A DNA stretch of 64,000 bases from Minisyncoccota bacterium (GCA_018063165.1 JAGOQU010000003.1:19268-83267); one strand, 5' to 3'; shown: positions 3,921 through 64,000, counted from the first letter of the stretch. The notes: generated by a model not told the origin, from the sequence alone. Numbers and translations: made by a program.

Positions 3921-3958
3921 TTTCAAAATTACTATAAGAAAGGTATACTGCACAGTAT

Positions 3959-4478: not shown

Positions 4479-5129
4479 ATGCAAGTTACCCCAGCTATAC
4501 TTCCGATAACATTTAATGAGATTACAGATAAGCTAGCAAAGCTTGAATATGCTTCATCTCTTGTGCAAATAGATCTTTGTGATGGTGAGTTTGGTATGCT
4601 TACAACATGGTTACCTGTCGGAGATGAGCATTTACCTAATGATTATGAATATGAATTTGATATCATGATGAATGATTGGAAAACGTACACTAAACGAGCT
4701 ATTGATTTAGGTTCTGCGCGTATAGTTGCGCACGTGGATCATTTTTCTGAGGCAGATGCGAATGATCTTATTGATATTCTGGAACACACAGGTATAGCGC
4801 TCGGTGTTTCTGTTTCCAATACTGTACCAGTAGAAGATCATATAAATTTTATTAAATTTTTTGAAGAAAGATATCAAAATGTATTTGTTCAAGTGATGGG
4901 TATACGAAATATAGGAGCGCAAGGGCAACCATTTGACGAAACTGTACTTGCAAGAATAGAAGAGATAAAAAGTTGGTGTCCTAATCTACATATACAAGTA
5001 GATGGTGCTATGAATAACATTACCGCAGAAAAAGTAAAAGATGCTGGTGCTGATACGGTTATTTCTGGATCATATATTTTCGGTGCAGAAAATAGTGCAA
5101 AAGCTTTAGCTACACTTGAAGAAATATAA
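4479..5129 (+). CDS. rpe: ribulose-phosphate 3-epimerase family protein
   Basis: TIM-barrel epimerase pattern: IDLCDGEF (cf. HVDVMDGHF), VAHVDHF, C-terminal IQVDGAMN...AGADTVISGSYIF. Sits between rpiB and tkt. Confidence 0.65.
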   Translation: MQVTPAILPITFNEITDKLAKLEYASSLVQIDLCDGEFGMLTTWLPVGDEHLPNDYEYEFDIMMNDWKTYTKRAIDLGSARIVAHVDHFSEADANDLIDILEHTGIALGVSVSNTVPVEDHINFIKFFEERYQNVFVQVMGIRNIGAQGQPFDETVLARIEEIKSWCPNLHIQVDGAMNNITAEKVKDAGADTVISGSYIFGAENSAKALATLEEI

Positions 5130-5214: not shown

Positions 5215-6081
5215 ATGCATTCACTTACTGACGTTGAAGTTCGTGCACTTACTCTTCGTGCTGAAGATATACGAGAAAGTATCATAAAGATGCTTGTAGA
5301 GGCGGGTAGTGGTCACACTGCAGGGTCTCTTGGTATGGCAGATGTTTTTACTGCTCTTTATTTTCGTATTATTAATCATAATCCACGACATCCTGAATGG
5401 ATACAGCGTGACAGAGTGATTCTTTCTAATGGTCATATAGCGCCAGTATTGTATGCAACCATGGCTCATGCTGGATATTTTTCTATATCAGAATTAAAGA
5501 CACTTCGAAGATTCGGTTCACGATTACAGGGTCATCCACACAAAGAAATGTTGCCTGGTATTGAGTCTTCGTCTGGTCCTTTAGGATCAGGACTTTCACA
5601 AGCTATTGGAATGGCACTTATGGATAAATTAGAAAATCATAAACCTGATAGATATTTTTATTGTTTAATGGGTGATGGTGAAATAAATGAAGGTCAGGTA
5701 TGGGAATCTCTGTTGCTTTTACATAAATATAAACTCAACAAGGTTATTTCTATTATTGATCGAAACACAATACAGATTGATGGGTATACCGAAGATGTGC
5801 TCCCACTTGAATCTTTAAAAGATAAACTCGAAGCTTTTAATTTTCATGTGATAGAAATTGATGGACATGATTTTAAAGATATTGTTCGTGCTGTTGGTAT
5901 GGCAAAGAGTACATTAGATAGAGCTACTGTTATTATTGCGCACACTATACCTGGTAAGGGGGTTACCGCATTTGAGGGTGATTATAGATGGCATGGTAAG
6001 GCTCCAAGTATAGAAGAAGGAAAAGTAGCCCTCAAAGAACTTCGTTCATTACGAGGAAAGGTTTCTTACGGAGAAATATAA
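5215..6081 (+). CDS. tkt: transketolase, N-terminal (TPP-binding) subunit
   Basis: GHTAGSLGMADVF and GDGEINEGQVWE motifs of the transketolase N-terminal section. 288 aa, i.e. a split tkt. Confidence 0.85.
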   Translation: MHSLTDVEVRALTLRAEDIRESIIKMLVEAGSGHTAGSLGMADVFTALYFRIINHNPRHPEWIQRDRVILSNGHIAPVLYATMAHAGYFSISELKTLRRFGSRLQGHPHKEMLPGIESSSGPLGSGLSQAIGMALMDKLENHKPDRYFYCLMGDGEINEGQVWESLLLLHKYKLNKVISIIDRNTIQIDGYTEDVLPLESLKDKLEAFNFHVIEIDGHDFKDIVRAVGMAKSTLDRATVIIAHTIPGKGVTAFEGDYRWHGKAPSIEEGKVALKELRSLRGKVSYGEI

Positions 6082-6089
6082 TATATAGT

Positions 6090-7076
6090 ATGATACGAGA
6101 AACATTATTTACAGCAAAAGAAGAAGAAAAAACAACACGAGAAGGCTTTGGTGAAGGTCTTCTTCATGCAGGAGAAAATGATACTCATGTTGTTGCGCTA
6201 TGTGCTGATCTCACAGATAGTGTACGCATGGATCTTTTCCGTGCTAAATTCCCAGCTCGTTTTTTTGAAATGGGGATAACTGAACAAGCTATGTCTGGTC
6301 TTGCGAGTGGAATGGCAGCATTTGGATACATTCCTTTTATGGCAAGTTATGCTGCTTTTTCTCCTGGAAGAAATTGGGAGCAGATACGTACTACAATTGC
6401 ATATAACGATGTGCCAGTAAAAATTATTGGAGCACATACCGGACTATCAGCTGGACCAGATGGTGCTACACATCAAGCGATAGAAGACATAGCACTTATG
6501 CGTATGATCCCTAATATGCAAGTATTTGTACCATGTGATGCAACAGAAGCAAGGGTGATCACAGAACACGTAGCTACTACGAAATACCCTTCGTATATTC
6601 GTTTAACACGTGAAAAAACTCCTCTTATGTTGCCAGATACATATGTATGGAATCATGGTAAGCCGTATGTTATGTTTATTCCAAAACAAAAAAATGGTGG
6701 TAGTTTTATGTACAATATAGGCGTTATTGGATGTGGCCCAATTATTTATCAAGCACTCAAGGCTGCTAAAGAATTAGAAAAAGAGGGTATAGGTGTAACT
6801 GTTGTTAATATGCCACAAATAAAACCACTTGATACTACATTTCTTCTTCGTTTTGTAAAAGATATGAGAGCTCTTGTAACCATAGAAGAGCATCAATCTG
6901 CAGGAGGTATGGGTAGTGCTGTGGCAGAATTTTTGAGTGAACATCATCCAATAAAAATTGCACGTATTGGTATAGATGATAGATTTGGGCAAAGTGGCAA
7001 GCTTCAAGAACTTTATGAAGAATACGGTCTTACATCGTCGCATATACAAGAAGTTATAAAACGAGTAATGATATAA
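6090..7076 (+). CDS. tkt: transketolase, C-terminal (pyrimidine-binding + C-terminal domain) subunit
   Basis: FEMGITEQAMSGLASGMA and downstream domains of the transketolase C-half. Immediately follows the N-terminal subunit. Confidence 0.85.
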   Translation: MIRETLFTAKEEEKTTREGFGEGLLHAGENDTHVVALCADLTDSVRMDLFRAKFPARFFEMGITEQAMSGLASGMAAFGYIPFMASYAAFSPGRNWEQIRTTIAYNDVPVKIIGAHTGLSAGPDGATHQAIEDIALMRMIPNMQVFVPCDATEARVITEHVATTKYPSYIRLTREKTPLMLPDTYVWNHGKPYVMFIPKQKNGGSFMYNIGVIGCGPIIYQALKAAKELEKEGIGVTVVNMPQIKPLDTTFLLRFVKDMRALVTIEEHQSAGGMGSAVAEFLSEHHPIKIARIGIDDRFGQSGKLQELYEEYGLTSSHIQEVIKRVMI

Positions 7077-7082
7077 AGAAAA

Positions 7083-7110
7083 AAAGCACCGACAAGCGGT
7101 GCTTTTACTT
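7083..7110. terminator. bidirectional rho-independent terminator between the convergent tkt and the 7112..7657 gene
   Basis: GC hairpin gcaccg-acaa-cggtgc flanked by an A-run and a T-run. Confidence 0.6.
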
Positions 7111-7111
7111 T

Positions 7112-7657
7112 TTAAAGTATATGTATTTCTTTTTTGATTGTTCCTTCTGGAACATAGAAATGATATTTAGAATCTCCTATTGTTGAAAATAAAGTAAAGT
7201 TTCTGTACTCTTTTTTTATAAAAGTTTCAGATGTTTTTAAAACACTTTTTTCATCTTTTGTTTCAGAAATTAAAACCGTATTCGTTTCAACATTAATACG
7301 ATCAAATTTGTATCCTTCTGCACTTTTTTCAAAGTACTCATAATAGGGGGTAGTTTTTACATCCCCTATAAAAAGTAACATACTTCCTTTAGATACATCT
7401 TTTTTTGCTAGTGAGACAATTTCAACAGTAGAAACTATTTTTTCTTCTGTTGGTAGTGTAAAACTATTGAAAAAAGCTAGTGTTAAACCCACAAGAGTAC
7501 CATGAAAAAGTTCATGTAGTATTTTTTTAGGTGTTAATTTTTCCTCTTGTCTTTTTTTGACAAAAAATAAAAATAAGGACATTGCTAAAAAAGTGAACCA
7601 ACCGAGAGCGATCATGTACATATATATTCCTTTATAAAATGATATTCCAACGAACAA
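7112..7657 (-). CDS. hypothetical N-terminally membrane-anchored protein
   Basis: N-terminal TM helix then a soluble domain. No known motif recognised. Confidence 0.4.
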   Translation of the reverse strand: MFVGISFYKGIYMYMIALGWFTFLAMSLFLFFVKKRQEEKLTPKKILHELFHGTLVGLTLAFFNSFTLPTEEKIVSTVEIVSLAKKDVSKGSMLLFIGDVKTTPYYEYFEKSAEGYKFDRINVETNTVLISETKDEKSVLKTSETFIKKEYRNFTLFSTIGDSKYHFYVPEGTIKKEIHIL

Positions 7658-8772: not shown

Positions 8773-8814
8773 ATGATTTAGTATACCAAGGACTTCCTGA
8801 TATACTATGTTGAT

Positions 8815-17740: not shown

Positions 17741-17817
17741 AACAATATTCACTATGTTTACATTCTAAAAATATGTGTTTTTGCACGTTTTAAAAAGTGG
17801 CGTATACTTAGAAACAT

Positions 17818-33884: not shown

Positions 33885-34065
33885 AAGTTATAAATTGCAA
33901 ACCTGACTTGTTGTTAAGTTTTTCTTTTTAAGTTTCGGACTTGCTTATACGTACAGTTTAGTTGCGTATCCACTTTTTTAAACTATTCGAACCTTCATTA
34001 ATTTCTGACATTTATCATACAGTTGGTTATTTTTCAATTGATGTACGAATTTAGTTAGAAAGCAC

Positions 34066-34094
34066 TTGACAAATAAAAATGTGTGTGATATTAT
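34066..34094 (+). promoter_or_regulatory. strong sigma70-like promoter with extended -10 (TTGACA-17-TGaTATTAT)
   Basis: Seen directly: ttgaca aataaaaatgtgtgtga tattat. Precedes the RBS aggag (34112) and the small ORF, ~350 nt upstream of rnpB. Confidence 0.5.
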
Positions 34095-34124
34095 GTATTA
34101 GTAATTTTTTTAGGAGTTTCTTTT

Positions 34125-34367
34125 ATGTTTGCATTACGGATATCTGGTTACTGTTTTCTTTCAGCTCTTTTTTCAGGCTTCATTATGTGTTTTCTACTTC
34201 TTGTTGGATCCCTTTTCAATATTTTAGATCTACTGATTACACCAGCTACTTTCTGCAGGGGTGCCATGTTGTACCTTACTGGATTTGGTATTTTAATCAT
34301 TATGTTAGTAGCTTTATCTCAGTTAATAAAGACTACTATCACTGCGTCAAAGCATTTTTTTTGCTGA
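34125..34367 (+). CDS. small hydrophobic membrane protein (80 aa), hypothetical
   Basis: Canonical AGGAG SD 8 nt upstream of the ATG and a strong promoter upstream. Two TM helices. Could alternatively be a leader of the rnpB transcript. Confidence 0.3.
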   Translation: MFALRISGYCFLSALFSGFIMCFLLLVGSLFNILDLLITPATFCRGAMLYLTGFGILIIMLVALSQLIKTTITASKHFFC

Positions 34368-34439
34368 TCAAAAATTTGTTCGTTAAAGCCATTCAACTCG
34401 ATGTTGAGTGGCTTTTCTTGCATTTTTTACAATTTCATT

Positions 34440-34802
34440 GTATTGTTACAAAGTTCTATTGGGTAATCGCCCTTACGGCTTTAAATGTAGCTTATGAGGG
34501 AGGAAAGTCCGAACACATATCTATTACAATGTGATGGAGAGCGTAGCGGGTAACGCCCGTCGTGAGTAATCATAGAGGTGCGAGCAGTGACGCCAATGCC
34601 GAAAGGCTAGGATTCCTTCGGGAATATGCTTACCGAAAGGTAAGATTGAAACGGCTAAATCCTTACGTGTGTGCAAGACCGTGCTCGTAGCAATATGAGA
34701 GTGTCGCTAGAGCGTGATGGTAACATTACGCCCAGATACATGATTACACAGTGTCAGTAATGACACGGACAGAATTCGGCTTATAGGTAGAACAAAGATA
34801 AA
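34440..34802 (+). ncRNA. rnpB: RNase P RNA (bacterial type A-like)
   Basis: Conserved P4 strands GGAGGAAAGTCCGAAC (34497..) and ACAGAATTCGGCTTATAGG (34769..), and AGCGGGTAACGCCCGTCGTGAG (P10/11 region). A locally GC-rich non-coding block. Ends are approximate. Confidence 0.75.
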
Positions 34803-34858
34803 AGAGCGACCCTAAACTACCAGATTTACTTCTTGGAAGAAGGGTCGCTCTTTTCTTT
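34803..34858 (+). terminator. hairpin terminator after rnpB
   Basis: agagcgaccc ... gggtcgctct 10-bp stem with an internal sub-hairpin, followed by tttcttttg. Confidence 0.55.
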
Positions 34859-34878: not shown

Positions 34879-34887
34879 GGGGGGGGG
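34879..34887 (+). repeat. G9 homopolymeric tract in the promoter/5' region of surface-protein paralog 1 (candidate slipped-strand phase-variation switch)
   Basis: Seen directly: gcgt-ggggggggg-cgac, 12 nt upstream of a TATACT -10-like hexamer and 27 nt upstream of the ATG. It is the only such run in the window, and the genome is AT-rich. Confidence 0.6.
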
Positions 34888-34913
34888 CGACTAAATGCTA
34901 TACTATACTCATT

Positions 34914-37334
34914 ATGAAAAAATATTATCTATCAGCTCTTTTACTAAGTTTTGGTATTTCTTTAACAACAGTATCTGCTCAAGTAGTAGATACAGATACA
35001 TCAGATACTATATCTACATGTACAACAATAACTACTAATATTAGTTACAAGAATAGAAAGAACAATAACAAAGCTGACGTAATGAATCTTCAAGACTTTT
35101 TAAATAGTACTGGATATTTAAACTCTGACTCTATAACAGGATTCTTTGGAAGAGTTACAGAAAGTGCTGTAGCTAAGTTCCAGAAAGACAATGGACTAGT
35201 CGCTAATCCAGCTGGGTTTGTGGGGGCAGGGACACGAGCGAAGATAAAGATGATTTCGTGTAGTGGAAATACAGGTGTGAATACTGATAGTTCTAATGTA
35301 AATGTAAACACAAATACAACAGGTATTTCTCAGCTTACAAAAAATCAGGTATTGAATGGTTTTGATCAGTGTGGTACTCAATTCAAGAATGGTACAATTT
35401 CTATTGGTTATACCAAGTATACAGAATTAGAAAGAACATGTGAATCAGCAGCTGCAGACGTATCACTATTTTTAGATAGTATAATTTTTGCAGATTTAGA
35501 TAATGATAATGTTAATGAGGCACTTGTCACAATGAGATTAGTTCGGGCATCTAGTGGAGGAGGATTATATATTTTTAAGAATGTTAATGGTGTTGCTCGT
35601 GTTATTGACGGTGTAATTTTTGGTAAAGGAAATGGTAATATTGTTTCCGTTAATAAAAATATAATAGTTGTGGAAGTGGAGGATTTCATTAGGGGTGAAA
35701 ATGTTCCATATAAAGAAACTTACAAGTTTATTAATAATAAACTGGAAAAAGTATCTGGTGTTGCTATTGCAGAAGAATCTTCACTTAATAACTCTAATCT
35801 TCCAGAAGGGTGTAAAACAACATCAGGGTTTAGTCCTGTTACTGGGGTGAAGTGTTCAAGCGGACTACCTTTTGTTGTTTCTCAATCGGTGCCTGATGTT
35901 GTTTCTTCTGAGAATCAAATTAATAGTATTGAGACAAATAATTGGCAAAAGTTTTCAAAATATGGTTTTGAAATAAAGCGTCCAACGGAGCATATTATTG
36001 TTGCTGATCGAGAGACGGCTATGGGTTATAATTTTACATTTTCTGCTAATAGTCAAGCTAATAGATTGATAGTCGATGTACAAAATAAATCATGGGATAA
36101 AGGTATTGTAAAATCAGGTGCAAATTGTAATGAGTTTCTTGCTGGGGACAATGTTTCAGAGGTTAAAATTAATGGAATTAGTTTTGTTAAATCTGATGTA
36201 AGCAAAGATTTTAACACATCTAAAACTTCATATATGGCTACAGGATATTGTTATGTTAATAATGGTTTAGCGTATAAACTCAACAAAATAATTACTAAAA
36301 ATGATGTTGATTCAGAAGTATATAATAAGGTTTTTAATGCTATGATTTCATCTTTTGTTGTTTCTCAATCGGTATCTGACGATGTTTTTTCTGAAAATCA
36401 ATTAATGGAAAAATTAAAAAATAGTACATATACATTTTCTCCTATAGGAAAAGGTGAGGAAGGTTCTAATGATATTAAAGTAAATATGGTTGCAGGACAA
36501 TCAAAAGGAAGTGATGGTTGGTTTCGTAATGTGGTAAGTGTTGCCGTTGATAAAAAAACTAATAGAGCTATAGTTGCATTAGATATAACAGGAGGTGCTT
36601 CTTCGCGTTTGCCAGCGATTGTTTCATTTACAAATATTAATGATATCCCTGAACAAAAAGATTTTGTGTATCTTAATTATTATCGTGGAACTATTAAAAC
36701 AGTATCGTTTAATGATGCAGGAGAAGTGTTGGTTAAATTTTTAGAAAAAGATTTCACGTATCATTTAGATTCATTAGGTAAACTAATTCCAGTTAATGAA
36801 ACAAAAAATGATTCTAATATTGATTCTGTAATTAATACATGGAAGAATAGTGATGGTTTTGTGAAAGGGGAAAAGTACGATGGTGAACACCATGCAAGAT
36901 CTTTGGTAAATAAGTCAACATTTGGTAGTACTTATTTTGGAAAAACTGTTCCCTATGCAATCATGAATGAAAGTAGTCATGGTAATGTGGCGGGAGGTGT
37001 ATGGAAAGTAATAATACAACCTCAGCAAACTAATAATACAAGTGATTTTGTATATGAATTTAATAGAGTTCAAGGTTATAACCCTTGGAATATAGGTTCA
37101 GATATAACAATGAATGTTGCTCAAATTTCTCATGAGTTAGTAGCAGATGGTCAACTGCTTGTTACTTTTAGAGTGTCGAGTGATATCAATTTTTCTAATT
37201 CTTCTAATGCATGTATTAAATATGGAGATTATAAAGCTACTTTTACCTTAGATAAGGTAAAACATATGTATACACCTACAAGTAAAAAGGATGTACTTAT
37301 TGAAGCAGCTTGTCTTGCTCAAAATCGTGGTTAG
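34914..37334 (+). CDS. large secreted surface protein, paralog 1: signal peptide + N-terminal peptidoglycan-binding (PG_binding_1-like) domain + divergent middle + conserved C-terminal module
   Basis: MKKYYLSALLL signal. MNLQDFLNSTGYL...DGFFGRVTESAVAKFQKDNGL PG-binding pattern. Shares 100%-identical DNA blocks with paralog 2. The ORF track start 34833 lies inside the rnpB terminator, so M34914 is preferred. Confidence 0.8.
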   Translation: MKKYYLSALLLSFGISLTTVSAQVVDTDTSDTISTCTTITTNISYKNRKNNNKADVMNLQDFLNSTGYLNSDSITGFFGRVTESAVAKFQKDNGLVANPAGFVGAGTRAKIKMISCSGNTGVNTDSSNVNVNTNTTGISQLTKNQVLNGFDQCGTQFKNGTISIGYTKYTELERTCESAAADVSLFLDSIIFADLDNDNVNEALVTMRLVRASSGGGLYIFKNVNGVARVIDGVIFGKGNGNIVSVNKNIIVVEVEDFIRGENVPYKETYKFINNKLEKVSGVAIAEESSLNNSNLPEGCKTTSGFSPVTGVKCSSGLPFVVSQSVPDVVSSENQINSIETNNWQKFSKYGFEIKRPTEHIIVADRETAMGYNFTFSANSQANRLIVDVQNKSWDKGIVKSGANCNEFLAGDNVSEVKINGISFVKSDVSKDFNTSKTSYMATGYCYVNNGLAYKLNKIITKNDVDSEVYNKVFNAMISSFVVSQSVSDDVFSENQLMEKLKNSTYTFSPIGKGEEGSNDIKVNMVAGQSKGSDGWFRNVVSVAVDKKTNRAIVALDITGGASSRLPAIVSFTNINDIPEQKDFVYLNYYRGTIKTVSFNDAGEVLVKFLEKDFTYHLDSLGKLIPVNETKNDSNIDSVINTWKNSDGFVKGEKYDGEHHARSLVNKSTFGSTYFGKTVPYAIMNESSHGNVAGGVWKVIIQPQQTNNTSDFVYEFNRVQGYNPWNIGSDITMNVAQISHELVADGQLLVTFRVSSDINFSNSSNACIKYGDYKATFTLDKVKHMYTPTSKKDVLIEAACLAQNRG
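34971..35316 (+). repeat. 346-bp block 100% identical to 37642..37987 (PG-binding domain coding region of both paralogs)
   Basis: Direct alignment by eye over the whole block, with no mismatches found. The flanking signal-peptide and downstream regions diverge. Confidence 0.85.
35794..35909 (+). repeat. ~116-bp block ~98% identical to 38852..38967 (NLPEGCKTTSGFSP..FVVSQSVPDVVSS module)
   Basis: Direct comparison shows 2 mismatches. Confidence 0.75.
36805..36962 (+). repeat. ~158-bp block ~90% identical to 39509..39666 (start of the conserved C-terminal module NDSNIDSVINTW.NSDGFVKGEKYDGE)
   Basis: Direct comparison. Protein-level similarity continues to the C-terminus. Confidence 0.7.
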
Positions 37335-37361
37335 GTTTTATAGTTTTTAATTTCGAAGTAG

Positions 37362-37394
37362 AAAAACGATTCCGTATGGAATCGTTTTTGTTTT
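37362..37394 (+). terminator. rho-independent terminator after paralog 1
   Basis: gaaaaacgattccgta-t-ggaatcgtttttgtttt. An identical sequence (one loop nt different) follows paralog 2. Confidence 0.7.
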
Positions 37395-37590
37395 AGTCTT
37401 ACATCCATCTACTCTACTTCTTTTATTACTCCATGCAATATTTAGTTTATTATAGGGGTAGCTGCTGCAGAATTTTAATATATTTTGTATTTGTAATATA
37501 AAATATTTTGTAGCAAATTAATAAAAGTTTATTTTTTTGTAGGTATCTTCTTTGCAACGAGAAGTTACTAAATGTTACACTATTCTCATT

Positions 37591-40038
37591 ATGAAAAAAT
37601 ATTATCTATCAGCTCTTTTACTCACTCTTTCATTATCATATGTATCTGCTCAAGTAGTAGATACAGATACATCAGATACTATATCTACATGTACAACAAT
37701 AACTACTAATATTAGTTACAAGAATAGAAAGAACAATAACAAAGCTGACGTAATGAATCTTCAAGACTTTTTAAATAGTACTGGATATTTAAACTCTGAC
37801 TCTATAACAGGATTCTTTGGAAGAGTTACAGAAAGTGCTGTAGCTAAGTTCCAGAAAGACAATGGACTAGTCGCTAATCCAGCTGGGTTTGTGGGGGCAG
37901 GGACACGAGCGAAGATAAAGATGATTTCGTGTAGTGGAAATACAGGTGTGAATACTGATAGTTCTAATGTAAATGTAAACACAAATATTTTAAAAGCAGA
38001 AAGTTGGAAGACATATACGAACAAAGAAAAAGGATATCAAATTAAATATCCATTTAATGCGAAGCTTACTGTAAGTAATTTATCTTGTCTTCAGATTGAT
38101 ACAGTAGAATTTGGTTCTGTGTATATTAACAGTGAGTCAGGTGATCCTTGTGGTACTCCAACAGGTGTTAGTAATTCTAGTAGTAATGTCACTTCTACTT
38201 TGTTTATTGATAGTAAAGAATATAATTTTTCTGGACGTCAAAATTATAACAATGCTTATAGTTTTTTTGCTGGTAATATAAGCGATAAACTTTCGTTGGT
38301 CTATGGTGTTGAACATAGAAATTCATCTAGTCTTAACCCTGAAGAACTAGGTTCTTTAACAGAAACTGAATATCAAAAAGCTTTAGATTCTGCAAAAAAA
38401 GTTCTTTCGACTTTTAAGATTTTACCAAATATATATATAAATGATACAGTTTGGAAAAAATATAAGAACGAAAATCGTAACTTTGTGATTTCGTACCCGA
38501 GTGATGTAGAGGTACAAGAAGTTTATAGACAGGATACGATTGCTTGTTTTAATAAAAAAAGTGAATCATGTTTTGTTTATATAGCTGATGATACTTCTGC
38601 TGTAAACAGAGTAAATAATGTGTCTGTTTTTAATGAATTAAATATTGCTACATTAGAAAATAAATTACATACAAAAATTATCGCAGAAGTTAATAACGAA
38701 GGACGTTATTCTGTGTCAATGAATAAAATTGTTATTTCTAGTAAAGACAAACTTATTTTAAGTAGAATGCTTTCTTCCATTGAATTTACTGGTATTAATG
38801 AAGGGATAAGTAAAGGCTCATCATCTTCAATAGTTGATATATTTAATAATCCTAATCTTCCAGAAGGGTGTAAAACAACATCAGGGTTTAGTCCTATTAC
38901 TGGGGTGAAGTGTTCAAGCGGACTACCTTTTGTTGTTTCTCAATCGGTGCCCGATGTTGTTTCTTCTAAAAATCAATTAATTGATAAAATTAAAAATGCT
39001 ACGTACTACTTTAATCTTCCTAATGGAAAAGATGAAGGTTCTAAAAGTATAACACCACTTAAAATGATTAATGGGGAAGCTAAGTTTTCTCTTTCTAATG
39101 GTTATAGTGCTATTTGTTATTTTTTAAATGGTGGCCCTCATTTTGCTGTAAATAAAAATGGAGATAAAGTTGCTGTAGCTGTTTCTTGTAGCCATGGTGG
39201 ATCTACTATAGATAATTTTTTAATTGCATTTAAAAATATAAATAACACATTAATCCAGACCGATATTGCTAATTTATTAGAATATCCATCTACAAAAATT
39301 AAAAATTCACTTAGAATTAGTGTAGAAAATATTGATTTAAGTAATGATAACATCGTTTCTGTTGCTACATTAGTAGTCCCAGAATCATCGTATAGTCTTC
39401 CTCAGTATAAACAAGATGCCACAGAATCATTTGTTGTGAAATATCAATTAAATAGCTCTGGTAAGCTTTTGATTTTGCCAACTTTGTCTACAGCACTGTC
39501 TTCATTACAAAATGATTCTAATATTGATTCTGTAATTAATACATGGATGAATAGTGATGGTTTTGTGAAAGGGGAAAAGTACGACGGTGAACGTCACACA
39601 AGATCTTTGATAAATAAGTCAACATTTAAAAGTACATATTTTGGAAAAATTGTTCCTTATGCAATTGTGGGTGAAGAAAGTATTGGTGAGGCCATGGGGG
39701 GATATTCTGAATTCATTGTTCATCCTCAAATAAATAGCAAAATAAGTAATTTTGTTTATGAATTCAATCGTGTAGAAGGTTTTAATCCTTGGGGGGTAGG
39801 TTCTGAAACTGGCAATTCTCCAGAAAAAGTTTCTTATGAATTAGTTGCAGATGATCAACTTCTTGTTATTTATAGGGTATCGCGTGATTTTATGCATCCT
39901 GATTCTTCTAAACAGTGTGTAAAACGAGGAGATTACAAAGCTACATATCTTTTAAATAAAACAGAACATATGTATGTTTCCTCAAGCAAGAAAGATTTTC
40001 TTTACTCAAGTGATTGTGAACACCCTAGTAACGGTTAG
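37591..40038 (+). CDS. large secreted surface protein, paralog 2 (same N-terminal PG-binding domain and C-terminal module as paralog 1, different central region)
   Basis: Same signal peptide and PG-binding domain. Shared NLPEGCKTTSGFSPITGVKCSSGLPFVVSQSVPDVVSS and C-terminal KGEKYDGERHTRS...NFVYEFNRVEGFNPW...GDYKATY modules. Confidence 0.8.
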   Translation: MKKYYLSALLLTLSLSYVSAQVVDTDTSDTISTCTTITTNISYKNRKNNNKADVMNLQDFLNSTGYLNSDSITGFFGRVTESAVAKFQKDNGLVANPAGFVGAGTRAKIKMISCSGNTGVNTDSSNVNVNTNILKAESWKTYTNKEKGYQIKYPFNAKLTVSNLSCLQIDTVEFGSVYINSESGDPCGTPTGVSNSSSNVTSTLFIDSKEYNFSGRQNYNNAYSFFAGNISDKLSLVYGVEHRNSSSLNPEELGSLTETEYQKALDSAKKVLSTFKILPNIYINDTVWKKYKNENRNFVISYPSDVEVQEVYRQDTIACFNKKSESCFVYIADDTSAVNRVNNVSVFNELNIATLENKLHTKIIAEVNNEGRYSVSMNKIVISSKDKLILSRMLSSIEFTGINEGISKGSSSSIVDIFNNPNLPEGCKTTSGFSPITGVKCSSGLPFVVSQSVPDVVSSKNQLIDKIKNATYYFNLPNGKDEGSKSITPLKMINGEAKFSLSNGYSAICYFLNGGPHFAVNKNGDKVAVAVSCSHGGSTIDNFLIAFKNINNTLIQTDIANLLEYPSTKIKNSLRISVENIDLSNDNIVSVATLVVPESSYSLPQYKQDATESFVVKYQLNSSGKLLILPTLSTALSSLQNDSNIDSVINTWMNSDGFVKGEKYDGERHTRSLINKSTFKSTYFGKIVPYAIVGEESIGEAMGGYSEFIVHPQINSKISNFVYEFNRVEGFNPWGVGSETGNSPEKVSYELVADDQLLVIYRVSRDFMHPDSSKQCVKRGDYKATYLLNKTEHMYVSSSKKDFLYSSDCEHPSNG

Positions 40039-40064
40039 TTTTTCTAGATTTTAATATGTGTGTA

Positions 40065-40099
40065 GAAAAACGATTCCGTAAGGAATCGTTTTTTGTTTT
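40065..40099 (+). terminator. rho-independent terminator after paralog 2
   Basis: gaaaaacgattccgta-a-ggaatcgttttttgtttt. Confidence 0.7.
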
Positions 40100-40153
40100 A
40101 ATATTACATTGTCTATTCTCCTTCTTTCACTTTCCTGATATTATAAGGAGACT

Positions 40154-44191: not shown

Positions 44192-44584
44192 ATGCGAGAA
44201 TATCAACAAAAACATTTACTAAGAACTCTCTTTTATTCAAGGGTAACTATTGTTATTTTATTTTTACTTATTATTGTTCTTCTTAGATCTATTATGGAGC
44301 TTAATGATAAGCGTATAGAAGTTTCAAAACTAGCAGAAGAAGCAAATATTGAGAAACAAAAAATGGTTGCAAAAGTAGAAAAGGCTCAGATACAAAGTGA
44401 TGAAATAGCAACACAAAGAGGGTTTGAGTCATATGTAAGAACAACGTATCCTGTTGTTAAGAATGGGGAAGGTGTTATAGTTGTGTATGATGAAAATACG
44501 AGTTCGGTAAGTCAGGTGAGAGCTGATATGAATATCTGGGAGAAATTTGTTGTTATTTGGAGAAATATAACAAAAAAAGAATAA
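44192..44584 (+). CDS. FtsB/DivIC-like septum formation initiator family protein (putative)
   Basis: N-terminal TM, coiled coil, and C-terminal ...RGFESYVRTTYPVVKNGEGVIVV resembling the DivIC/FtsB C-terminal motif. Confidence 0.4.
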   Translation: MREYQQKHLLRTLFYSRVTIVILFLLIIVLLRSIMELNDKRIEVSKLAEEANIEKQKMVAKVEKAQIQSDEIATQRGFESYVRTTYPVVKNGEGVIVVYDENTSSVSQVRADMNIWEKFVVIWRNITKKE

Positions 44585-62385: not shown

Positions 62386-64000
62386 TTACTTTGTTGATGG
62401 TGCTACTTTTTCTAGTAAACCATACGTAGATTTAATAAACATAAGTAGTTTTTCAAAAAGATTATTTGTTTTTATTTCTGTAACAGGAGTTGTTGTTGCT
62501 TTTTGAAGAACAAGCTCTTTGTAAGTAAACGTTTCCACCTTCTTATATATATTATTTTGTGGTACTTTTTCTATTTCACTATATATGACAGGTTGTATGT
62601 TTTGAAGTTTATTGAGAGTATTTCTTGTTTTTGGTCCGACTATACCCGTTAAAGGAGATATTAAATGATCTTTCTGGAATAGCATCACAGCATTTTGTGT
62701 TATTGGTCCAAAGTAACTAGTAATTGTTCCATATGTATAATAGCCATAATATGTTAGTAATTTTTGTAACGCATAAACATCTTTTCCTCGATATCCAATT
62801 GTCATAGTTCTTTCAAATAGATATTTTTCAGGTTTTTCTAAGGATATTTCTAGTGTAGGTTCTGTTGAGGTAGATACTTTTTGATTAGTTGATGTTGCTT
62901 TGATTACAGTTAACTGCGTGCTGGTTGAAGTTGTTGTACTCACGATAGGGGTTACAGGCTGTGTATACCAACCACTACCACTAAATGACGATCCTCCTCC
63001 TAACGGTTGTGCTATTACAGAAATTATAAATGTCTTTGTGGACGTATTTCCTGCTATGTCTGTAATAGTAAGAGATGTATTATATGTTCCTGTTGTGCTA
63101 TAGGTGTGAGATTGAACAATTGTGCCAATTGAAGTGGTTGTGCTTGTTAGTGTTGTTGAGTCACCAAAATTCCAAACGTATGTCCAAGTTTCAGGGAGAC
63201 TACTTGAAGCATTTGGGTCAGTACTTATATCTCTTAAAGTTGCAATTAAGTAATTGGTTGAAACTGTAACATTAGCTTTAGGTTTATAATTAATAATATC
63301 TACTAATGATACAGGTGTTGTTGTTGAAACAGTTGTTGTCGCACCTCCTGTAAAGATTTCACCACTTAATATTTGATCATTAACAACTACAGCATTAAAG
63401 AATATCGCATTTTCTATTGTTGAACTTGAAATAGTGGTTCCAGATAAGATCACATTAGTAAGTGTGCTATTTGTTGCGGTAGCATTATTTAATGAAGATC
63501 CTATGTCTATTGTACTGTTAGATAAATTTGAATTGATTACACTTGCACCTGTTGAAGTACTGTTATTTACTGTTGAACTTGCAATTGTAGAACCAGAAAT
63601 TATAGAAGATGTAACAACTGTACCATTTGTTATTGTTGAAGATGCTAAAGTGCTTAATGAAGATGAACTATTTGTAAGTAATGAATCATGTATTGTTGAT
63701 GTTGCAATATATGCATTTGTTGAAGTGGAATTTATAACATCAGAAACATATATTTCTGAAAAGAGAATAATCGATCCTGAAACGTCATTAAGAATTCCCA
63801 CTGGGTCAACTATAGAATCTGTTATTTGACAATCTGTTCCTCTGTAATTTTTGACGAACGAATTTACAACAGAACATTGTGTTAACTCAACATTTTCAAA
63901 ATGTGTACTCGTTGCTTCTACATTTATTAGAGAGCTACTTGCAATAATAACATTAAAGAAATTTGAATTTGTTATAGTTGTTTCTCCAAAAATATTATGT
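62386..64000 (-). CDS. large surface protein, N-terminus beyond the window: parallel beta-helix-like N(x)T/S-rich repeats + PKD domain + C-terminal peptidoglycan-binding (PG_binding_1-like) domain
   Basis: The listed ORF start at 63801 is a GTG (Val) inside a continuing reading frame that is open to the window edge. PKD pattern WNFGDSTTL...HTYSTTGTYNTSLTITDIAGN. C-terminal YRGKDVYALQKLLTYYGYY...FGPITQNAVMLFQKDHLISPLTGIVGPKT PG-binding pattern. Confidence 0.7.
   Translation of the reverse strand, partial: HNIFGETTITNSNFFNVIIASSSLINVEATSTHFENVELTQCSVVNSFVKNYRGTDCQITDSIVDPVGILNDVSGSIILFSEIYVSDVINSTSTNAYIATSTIHDSLLTNSSSSLSTLASSTITNGTVVTSSIISGSTIASSTVNNSTSTGASVINSNLSNSTIDIGSSLNNATATNSTLTNVILSGTTISSSTIENAIFFNAVVVNDQILSGEIFTGGATTTVSTTTPVSLVDIINYKPKANVTVSTNYLIATLRDISTDPNASSSLPETWTYVWNFGDSTTLTSTTTSIGTIVQSHTYSTTGTYNTSLTITDIAGNTSTKTFIISVIAQPLGGGSSFSGSGWYTQPVTPIVSTTTSTSTQLTVIKATSTNQKVSTSTEPTLEISLEKPEKYLFERTMTIGYRGKDVYALQKLLTYYGYYTYGTITSYFGPITQNAVMLFQKDHLISPLTGIVGPKTRNTLNKLQNIQPVIYSEIEKVPQNNIYKKVETFTYKELVLQKATTTPVTEIKTNNLFEKLLMFIKSTYGLLEKVAPSTK

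Follow-up and report, generated by a model that had tools for sequence, protein, structure and literature searches.

Tandem genes for predicted peptidoglycan-binding surface proteins of an uncultured Paceibacterota bacterium: a probable old duplication with later gene conversion

A pair of head-to-tail genes at positions 34,914 to 40,099 of a 64,000-nt stretch of Minisyncoccota bacterium DNA (GCA_018063165.1, JAGOQU010000003.1:19268-83267; this whole stretch is referred to as the window) raises the question of how two neighbouring genes came to be identical over 346 bp and to have non-homologous centres, and whether they form a system for varying the cell surface. The source is an uncultured ultra-small bacterium of the Candidate Phyla Radiation (CPR; Paceibacterota). 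The locus probably consists of two complete and separately transcribed tandem paralogs encoding modular surface proteins, which would have arisen by an old duplication and undergone later gene conversion.

Both genes are located on the plus strand.

34914..37334, + strand: gene 1, 806 amino acids (aa); signal peptide, N-module (PG_binding_1), domain A, Cys-loop linker, domain B (PsbP-like), C1, C2
37591..40038, + strand: gene 2, 815 aa; signal peptide, N-module, two WKTY/PsbP-like domains, linker, C1, C2

A first reading made from the sequence alone (the sequence-only reading) had described two head-to-tail genes of about 830 aa. The arrangement was correct and the lengths were revised to 806 and 815 aa, as counted from the ATG start of both genes that is kept across homologs (MKKYYLSA...). 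Upstream TTG starts giving 833 and 828 aa were considered unlikely, and the TTG start of gene 1 would fall inside the terminator of rnpB, the RNase P RNA gene located upstream. The database entries of both proteins are named "peptidoglycan-binding protein" and belong to Candidatus Pacebacteria/Paceibacterota metagenome-assembled genomes. The gene 2 protein is identical to P0001 (MBP6948483.1 / MBP9866918.1).

The N-terminal PG_binding_1-like domain attributed to both proteins was recovered. A putative signal peptide, read by eye, is MKKYYLSALLL...VSA|QVV. PG_binding_1 (PF01471) was matched with E = 1.3e-11 at aa 53-110 of gene 1 and E = 1.5e-11 in gene 2, with scores of 44.9 and 44.8 bits compared to the Pfam cut-off of 23, covering profile positions 2-56 of 57. 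Weak PDB and NCBIfam matches fell on this domain too, and NCBIfam and PDB sequence searches gave no match outside it. Cys36 and Cys116 are invariant in the N-module alignment and bracket the PG_binding_1 module; further Cys pairs are present in the linker and in C2. The proteins are most likely secreted and wall-anchored, tethered to the cell's own peptidoglycan by the N-module. In the predicted order a Sec signal peptide is followed by a disulfide-bracketed PG_binding_1 anchor, then by a Cys-loop linker and finally by a series of beta-rich domains outside the cell.

The similarity of the two genes is highly uneven along their length, with the closest agreement in the anchor and the linker.

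34971..35316, + strand: exact block copy 1, 346/346 identical to copy 2; end of the signal peptide, PG_binding_1 and Asn/Thr-rich tail
37642..37987, + strand: exact block copy 2, 346/346 identical to copy 1
35785..35924, + strand: linker island copy 1 (NLPEGCKTTSGFSPVTGVKCSSGLPFVVSQSVPDVVSS), 95-96% identical to 38843-38981
38843..38981, + strand: linker island copy 2, counterpart of 35785..35924

The 346-bp block had been reported as 100% identical and all 346 positions agreed on recheck; it is a maximal exact block and is not extendable. A second block, given as about 98% identical, lies within the linker island (35794-35909 and 38852-38967, 114/116 identical). The third, given as about 90% identical, was probably the 63-nt block of 5' leader and signal peptide start at 34890-34952 and 37567-37629, for which an identity of 90% was obtained. 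Towards the 3' end 36805-37423 and 39509-40127 are about 74% identical, and the C-terminal parts of the two genes as a whole are about 59-79% identical. When mismatch positions were permuted 20,000 times across the columns that could be aligned, perfect runs reached 48 at most, compared to the 346 observed. The block contained 0/346 differences compared to 11/75 in the adjoining homologous 5' flank (Fisher p = 3e-9). Chance is therefore excluded for the exact block.

Synonymous divergence (dS) was calculated by the Nei-Gojobori method on the codon alignment. It was 0 in the N-module (0 differences, 77.7 synonymous sites), 0.066 in the linker, 1.06 in C1 and 0.665 in C2. Synonymous identity is not explicable by selection at the protein level, suggesting recent non-reciprocal recombination. 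The divergence between the units falls at 0%, about 5%, about 13% and 21-41%. These amount to at least three levels of similarity, suggesting more than one conversion event. The gene conversion or recombination between the copies proposed in the sequence-only reading is thus supported by the spread of dS and by at least three age classes of similarity.

The homology between the two units begins 24 nt 5' of the ATG and ends about 90 nt 3' of the stop codon with the terminators included, suggesting that a whole transcription unit was duplicated. It stops at 37423 and resumes at 37567.

37362..37389, + strand: gene 1 intrinsic terminator, 12-bp stem and T-run; -15 kcal/mol, z = -4.4
40066..40093, + strand: gene 2 intrinsic terminator; the single gene in contig L083, a relative described below, has a homologous terminator
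37424..37566, + strand: AT-rich spacer of 143 nt, without a counterpart elsewhere in the locus; -35-like TTGCAA at 37552-37557 (by eye)

The terminators had been described as identical apart from one loop nucleotide. The stems are identical and one loop base differs (GUAU and GUAA), and in addition there is one extra T in the tail. The history proposed for the pair is that an old duplication of the whole unit, from -10 box to terminator, would have produced the tandem arrangement, after which the copies would have diverged and their centres would have been remodelled as domains were gained, lost or replaced. Ordinary homologous recombination, in the form of non-reciprocal gene conversion, may then have evened out again those stretches that had retained enough similarity for pairing. 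The 346-bp anchor would have been converted very recently and the linker, of about 135 bp, somewhat earlier.

A third paralog carrying the N-module, P0004 (MBP6948537.1 / MBP9867230.1), is encoded outside the window. It shares both protein-accession series with genes 1 and 2 and evidently comes from the same two assemblies. P0004 is 1114 aa in length with two linker motifs and a second PG_binding_1 domain at the C-terminus, and is 63% identical at the amino acid level over the matched N-terminal 17% of gene 1. This lower identity suggests that homogenisation is limited to the two neighbouring genes, in keeping with ordinary homologous recombination. Exact look-ups of P0004 and of the 815-aa form of gene 2 returned no record.

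The pair occupies a genomic slot with rnpB as its left border. On the 3' side it is followed by murJ and then lepA, and farther 5' are the ATP synthase operon, bipA and a DUF192 gene.

34451..34799, + strand: RNase P RNA (rnpB), left border of the slot; Rfam RF00010, 97.7 bits, E = 2e-30, full-length match
34800..34855, + strand: rnpB terminator hairpin; -27.8 kcal/mol, z = -5.65

The rnpB score is just below the Rfam gathering score of 100, so that a default scan misses the gene and an E-value threshold shows it; the gathering scan of the 64-kb window returned two tRNAs and nothing else. The same slot was found in relatives. Contig L083 (Logan SRR22388068) has a single orthologous gene, encoding P0002, between rnpB and murJ-lepA. 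This gene agrees with gene 1 in its upstream flank and with gene 2 in its terminator and downstream flank. The contig encoding P0003 has the same synteny, again with one gene. In both relatives one N-module gene is thus located between BipA/DUF192/(rnpB) and murJ-lepA; the N-module is common to them (74-76% alignment identities) and the passenger domains are entirely different. It appears from this that the slot is conserved and its occupant is rebuilt between lineages, with two genes in the lineage of the window. Judged from these contigs, module replacement in the rnpB-murJ slot happens on evolutionary time.

A GTDB genome scan with the N-module gave one locus only, L002, in another genomic context. 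This related Paceibacterota genome has an N-module gene (5882-7249) in an insertion between an ABC ATPase gene and gap. On either side of the insertion stands a copy of the first part of the ATPase gene (5008-5116 and 7301-7406), a direct duplication of 109 nt with 94% identity, and no gene is present at the syntenic site in the window (about 1770-1899). A metagenome scan gave 80 loci, mostly distant PG_binding_1 proteins of unrelated organisms and uninformative for this locus.

Some features around rnpB were also recorded. In L083 (39-172) rnpB has an insertion of ~130 nt relative to window positions 34685-34698. Between the DUF192 gene and rnpB is a gap of ~560 nt (33885-34450) containing spurious low-complexity open reading frames (ORFs) only, where a relative has TraX and GIY-YIG genes. 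A hairpin at 34385-34446 resembles a bidirectional terminator and has a weak RefA9 match.

The central and C-terminal parts of the proteins were divided into the following domains.

35316..35789, + strand: domain A of gene 1 (aa 135-292); gene 2 is without domain A
35934..36359, + strand: domain B of gene 1 (aa 341-482), WKTY/PsbP-like; aligns with the WKTY...YP...STFKF domains
37999..38826, + strand: two very diverged WKTY-type domains of gene 2 (aa 137-287 and 288-412); motif alignment
36396..36833, + strand: C1 of gene 1, a separate domain in the profile search; AlphaFold2 (AF2) model residues 14-146
36834..37331, + strand: C2 of gene 1, 58% aa identity to C2 of gene 2; AF2 model residues 156-319
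38983..40035, + strand: C1 and C2 of gene 2; C1 38983-39540, C2 39541-40035

The centres had been called unrelated. No significant pairwise BLAST match was obtained between them, but there is some kinship in domain type, as gene 1 has one and gene 2 has two WKTY...YP...STFKF domains, all highly diverged. A word-indexed search with the gene 2 centre found no homolog. Domain A is 53-62% identical to six membrane-anchored CPR proteins of ~200 aa (P0037-P0042) and also matches the C-terminus of P0005; its profile match to C1 was weak (hhalign E = 0.0026 but probability 12%). The resemblance of B-type domains to PsbP is slight: one of nine aligned family members matched PF18933 (PsbP_2) with E = 3.4e-4, and the B-type profile weakly matched CyanoP (sll1418) in the PDB (E = 0.15). 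The AF2 model of domain B, with a predicted local distance difference test (pLDDT) score of 47, was too poor to establish the fold. The linker reads NLPEGCKTTSGFSPxTGVKCSS, and the motif LPxGCxSxxGFSxxTGxxCS recurs in the CPR proteins P0002, P0003, P0004 (twice) and P0008 (twice).

The C-terminal module of about 300 aa described in the sequence-only reading is indeed shared, but it is made up of two domains, C1 (31% aa identity between the genes) and C2 (58%). A HMMER search of 1.84 billion representatives with the C-terminal region gave only 27 proteins and separated the two as independent domains, with ~18 homologs for C1 and six for C2 (P0010-P0014, P0029). The four C2 homologs with complete N-termini (P0011-P0013, P0029) all have a hydrophobic N-terminal anchor, read by eye. 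Most C1 and C2 homologs, like the six domain A homologs, are CPR proteins of ~200 aa with such an anchor (by eye). P0019 joins the middle domain of P0002 to a gene-1-type C1. The AF2 model of C1 and C2, from a 26-row alignment, had a pLDDT of 88 and showed two domains, each a helix followed by a beta-sheet domain; C1, with one helix and a beta-sheet domain, had a pLDDT of about 90. Foldseek searches of the C1-C2 model against PDB and BFVD gave only propeller or fibre fragments at template modelling (TM) scores of 0.27 or less and no meaningful match. Full-length and A+L+B alignments were dropped from structure prediction as fragments were misplaced. Two of the three G6 runs in the 64 kb (39696-39701 and 39791-39796) are inside C2 of gene 2. 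The passenger domains A, WKTY/PsbP-like, C1 and C2 are rare CPR domains, predicted to be extracellular and beta-rich.

The first alternative is a contingency or antigenic-variation locus, in which the conserved blocks, and the junction repeats at domain B, would serve as recombination handles by which exposed modules are exchanged or lost often enough to be of use, slippage of a poly-G tract (G9) would switch or tune gene 1 and the cells would carry heterogeneous surface proteins for attaching to hosts or avoiding phages. It was considered unlikely. The evidence bearing on it lies in the promoter region, the junctions of domain B and the surroundings of the pair.

34879..34887, + strand: G9 homopolymer, 12-20 nt upstream of the gene 1 -10 hexamer, in the putative promoter spacer / -35 zone
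34896..34904, + strand: gene 1 extended -10 TGcTATACT, 9 nt before the ATG
37573..37581, + strand: gene 2 extended -10 TGtTACACT, 9 nt before the ATG

Apart from the G9 tract no run of G or C in the 64 kb reaches a length of 7, with ~0.02 such runs expected by chance, and the tract is unusual for a sequence of 34% G+C. With G9 present a -35-like TTGCGT is 20 nt from the -10, compared to 18 nt in gene 2 and L083 (by eye). A tract shortened by two or three Gs would bring the spacing back to 17-18 nt, so that slippage could change the strength of the promoter and G9 could tune transcription of gene 1. Against this, both promoters look like the extended -10 type (TGnTATACT), with little dependence on -35 spacing; extended -10 promoters are known to depend little on a -35 element. 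A consensus promoter scan called the promoter of neither gene, and both were assigned from the genome-wide pattern TGnTATACT-N6-12-ATG. In the window 35/38 ORF starts are without a Shine-Dalgarno-like motif, and a TATACT/TATAAT-like hexamer, usually with TGn in front, stands 6-12 nt upstream of the ATG of 24 ORFs, which suggests that the genome widely uses extended -10 promoters and leaderless mRNAs. The placement of the gene 1 -10 likewise implies a leaderless or near-leaderless mRNA. Examples of such elements with their ATG spacing in the window are found at 1882-1899, 3941-3958, 8797-8814, 17800-17817, 34896-34913 and 37573-37590. In L083 the corresponding element is TTGACA-18-TAGAAT ending 8 nt before the ATG, and G9 aligns with a G5 run in its promoter spacer; this would be divergence between species and not phase variation. 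A second assembly, GCA_017992935.1 (JAGONQ010000002.1), equals the window over 19,433 bp apart from one single-nucleotide polymorphism at 44220, distant from the locus. G9 and the entire locus are the same in both assemblies and no variation in tract length was seen between the two.

A 79-nt repeat is present at the junctions of domain B.

35869..35947, + strand: junction repeat copy 1, exact 22-nt core CTTTTGTTGTTTCTCAATCGGT
36352..36430, + strand: junction repeat copy 2, same exact 22-nt core; brackets domain B with copy 1
38927..39005, + strand: junction repeat copy 3, 82% identical to copy 2 overall; first part inside the 95-96% linker island

The core encodes FVVSQSV. The left half of the gene 2 copy is like copy 1 and the right half like copy 2, resembling a recombination product of the gene 1 copies. 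Domain B would therefore have been either inserted with duplication of the junction or deleted from the ancestor of gene 2 by repeat recombination, and the repeats could still mediate its loss at low frequency. A 1144-nt metagenome contig, L087 (GCA_020054605.1, JAHZTR011266134.1), is 100% equal to window positions 36380-37419. Its positions 1-104 are unrelated GC-rich bases with an in-frame stop, and the breakpoint is 6 nt past the 22-nt repeat. L087 was considered more likely to be a chimeric contig than an alternative junction.

The flanking of non-homologous centres by conserved islands and the variation of the rnpB-murJ slot between relatives are also consistent with a contingency locus, but the other parts of such a system were not found. 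There are just two copies, each complete with a -10 box and terminator. In a tblastn search of the 64 kb both proteins matched only the two complete genes and an unrelated PG_binding_1 domain at 62623-62781. No recombinase, invertase or diversity-generating reverse transcriptase was found beside the genes, no inverted repeats suggesting an invertible element were present at the locus, and the 90% protein clusters held no variant alleles. The locus is thus without the defining features of silent-cassette antigenic variation. The identical and near-identical tracts encode the anchor and linker, which would be buried, and the centres are non-homologous, so that conversion homogenises these tracts and does not diversify the exposed parts. 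Accordingly, the cassette architecture and variable surface-antigen locus of the sequence-only reading were not upheld: the two units are complete, with no silent copies in 64 kb and no adjacent recombinase. Of its module shuffling, exchange on evolutionary time is seen in the slot of the relatives and in P0019, but no dedicated system was found. The roles in immune or phage evasion and host attachment suggested for the proteins are speculation. The unrelated PG_binding_1 domain belongs to a minus-strand gene (62386-63801), whose product has the domain at the C-terminus, 44% identical to that of the N-module, after a long Ser/Thr/Asn-rich N-terminal part.

A bolder form of this alternative, in which the rnpB-murJ slot of an obligate episymbiotic CPR bacterium would be a contingency locus, with gene 1 tuned by slippage of the poly-G in a leaderless extended -10 promoter and with the anchor, linker and junction sequences as handles by which ligand-binding modules (A, PsbP-like, C1, C2) could be swapped, deleted or duplicated on a peptidoglycan-anchored stalk, was given slightly less credence still. 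If true, it would provide population-level variation in host-attachment specificity and would be the first such system described for CPR. Literature searches gave no paper on phase variation or gene conversion of CPR surface proteins. The nearest, on a Gracilibacteria genome with a hypervariable repeat gene (bioRxiv 10.1101/595074), concerns another phenomenon.

A recent chimera is distinctly less probable than a contingency locus. Here gene 2 (or gene 1) would be the product of one recombination that grafted the promoter-proximal anchor module of the resident gene onto a passenger gene of other derivation, in place of repeated conversion, and the identity of the blocks would reflect the youth of the fusion. 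This would fit the 3' edge of the exact block, where all homology ends (35316 / 37987), the spacer without a homolog and the occurrence of N-module genes in other genomic contexts such as the L002 insertion. However, the leader and signal peptide (about 87-90%), linker (95%), C1/C2 (59-79%), terminator and 3' flank are also homologous, and three or more divergence levels are unexplained by a single graft. At its 5' edge the exact block passes into sequence that is still homologous, which is how a conversion tract would be expected to end. An assembly or polishing artefact, with cross-mapped paralog reads homogenised or a repeat misresolved, has very little probability. In its favour, the genome was assembled from a metagenome, the 346-bp block is longer than typical k-mers and short reads, and the two agreeing assemblies may come from the same project. 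Against it, a collapsed repeat would leave one copy and not two, the reported path is by reasoning the only linear graph path using both gene bodies, at 34970/34971 perfect identity gives way to about 14% divergence over no more than a few bases, unlike the effect of polishing, the assembler kept the paralogs apart at the 95% linker island and the 74-79% C2 region, and the second assembly agrees.

An old tandem duplication with later gene conversion was therefore preferred, with some points weighing against it. Conversion was deduced from a single consensus haplotype, and the two assemblies that agree may not be independent. With dS in C1 and C2 near saturation the age of the duplication is only roughly known. 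Given the homolog-free 143-nt spacer, gene 2 could instead be a foreign gene that was inserted here and acquired its N-module afterwards. Both the binding to peptidoglycan and the exposure at the surface are predicted.

To our knowledge the molecules by which CPR/Patescibacteria contact their hosts are largely unknown. The locus shows a building plan of CPR surface proteins, with a predicted peptidoglycan-binding anchor, a Cys-loop linker and interchangeable rare extracellular domains. The rnpB-murJ slot is where this plan appears to be rebuilt between close relatives, with concerted evolution of the anchor. It supplies candidates for attachment proteins and a site at which strain-level variation can be sought. 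Its value is mainly descriptive, for CPR biology and for the annotation of four uncharacterised domain families.

The pair was compared to known systems, among which Helicobacter pylori babA/babB and Campylobacter fetus sap offer the closest parallels. The N-module matches PF01471 above threshold, as in SleB and phage endolysins (phiKZ gp144), but unlike these the proteins have no catalytic (lytic) domain and PG_binding_1 is N-terminal to non-enzymatic beta-rich modules. In Neisseria meningitidis porA/opc and Mycoplasma hyorhinis vlp a homopolymer is located in the promoter spacer, and length polymorphism and an effect on expression are documented. The present homopolymer would similarly lie between the -35 and -10 positions of a putative promoter of a surface-protein gene, but a single length (G9) was seen and the promoter looks like the extended -10 type. 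Neisseria pilE/pilS, Borrelia vlsE, Treponema tprK and Mycoplasma genitalium MgPar have one expression site and many promoterless partial donors. They share with the present pair non-reciprocal recombination between related surface-protein sequences, but silent-cassette conversion diversifies exposed regions whereas here there are two complete genes with conserved regions homogenised. The Campylobacter fetus sap S-layer family has a conserved 5' anchoring region that is the recombination substrate and remainders that are variable. Its conserved 5' region encodes an anchoring N-terminal domain, as predicted here, but in sap one promoter is inverted among promoterless homologs, while at the present locus both genes come with a promoter-like element and a terminator, and inverted repeats are absent.

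Helicobacter pylori babA/babB and sabA/sabB are full-length adhesin paralogs with near-identical 5' segments, divergent middles and RecA-type gene conversion. In these genes phase variation arises from a simple repeat close to the 5' end, and experiments have shown both chimeras and ON/OFF variants; no variants were seen in the two assemblies here. There is no sequence or fold relationship between these adhesins and the present pair, and the H. pylori proteins are outer-membrane beta-barrel adhesins encoded at distant loci, unlike the tandem, PG_binding_1 wall-anchored proteins with diverged 3' parts predicted here. The two systems are alike in having paralogous full-length surface-protein genes, a shared 5' segment and, probably here, gene conversion. 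Tandem surface-protein paralogs of other bacteria are well known to undergo gene conversion, and the pair belongs with these known cases rather than with a new variation system.

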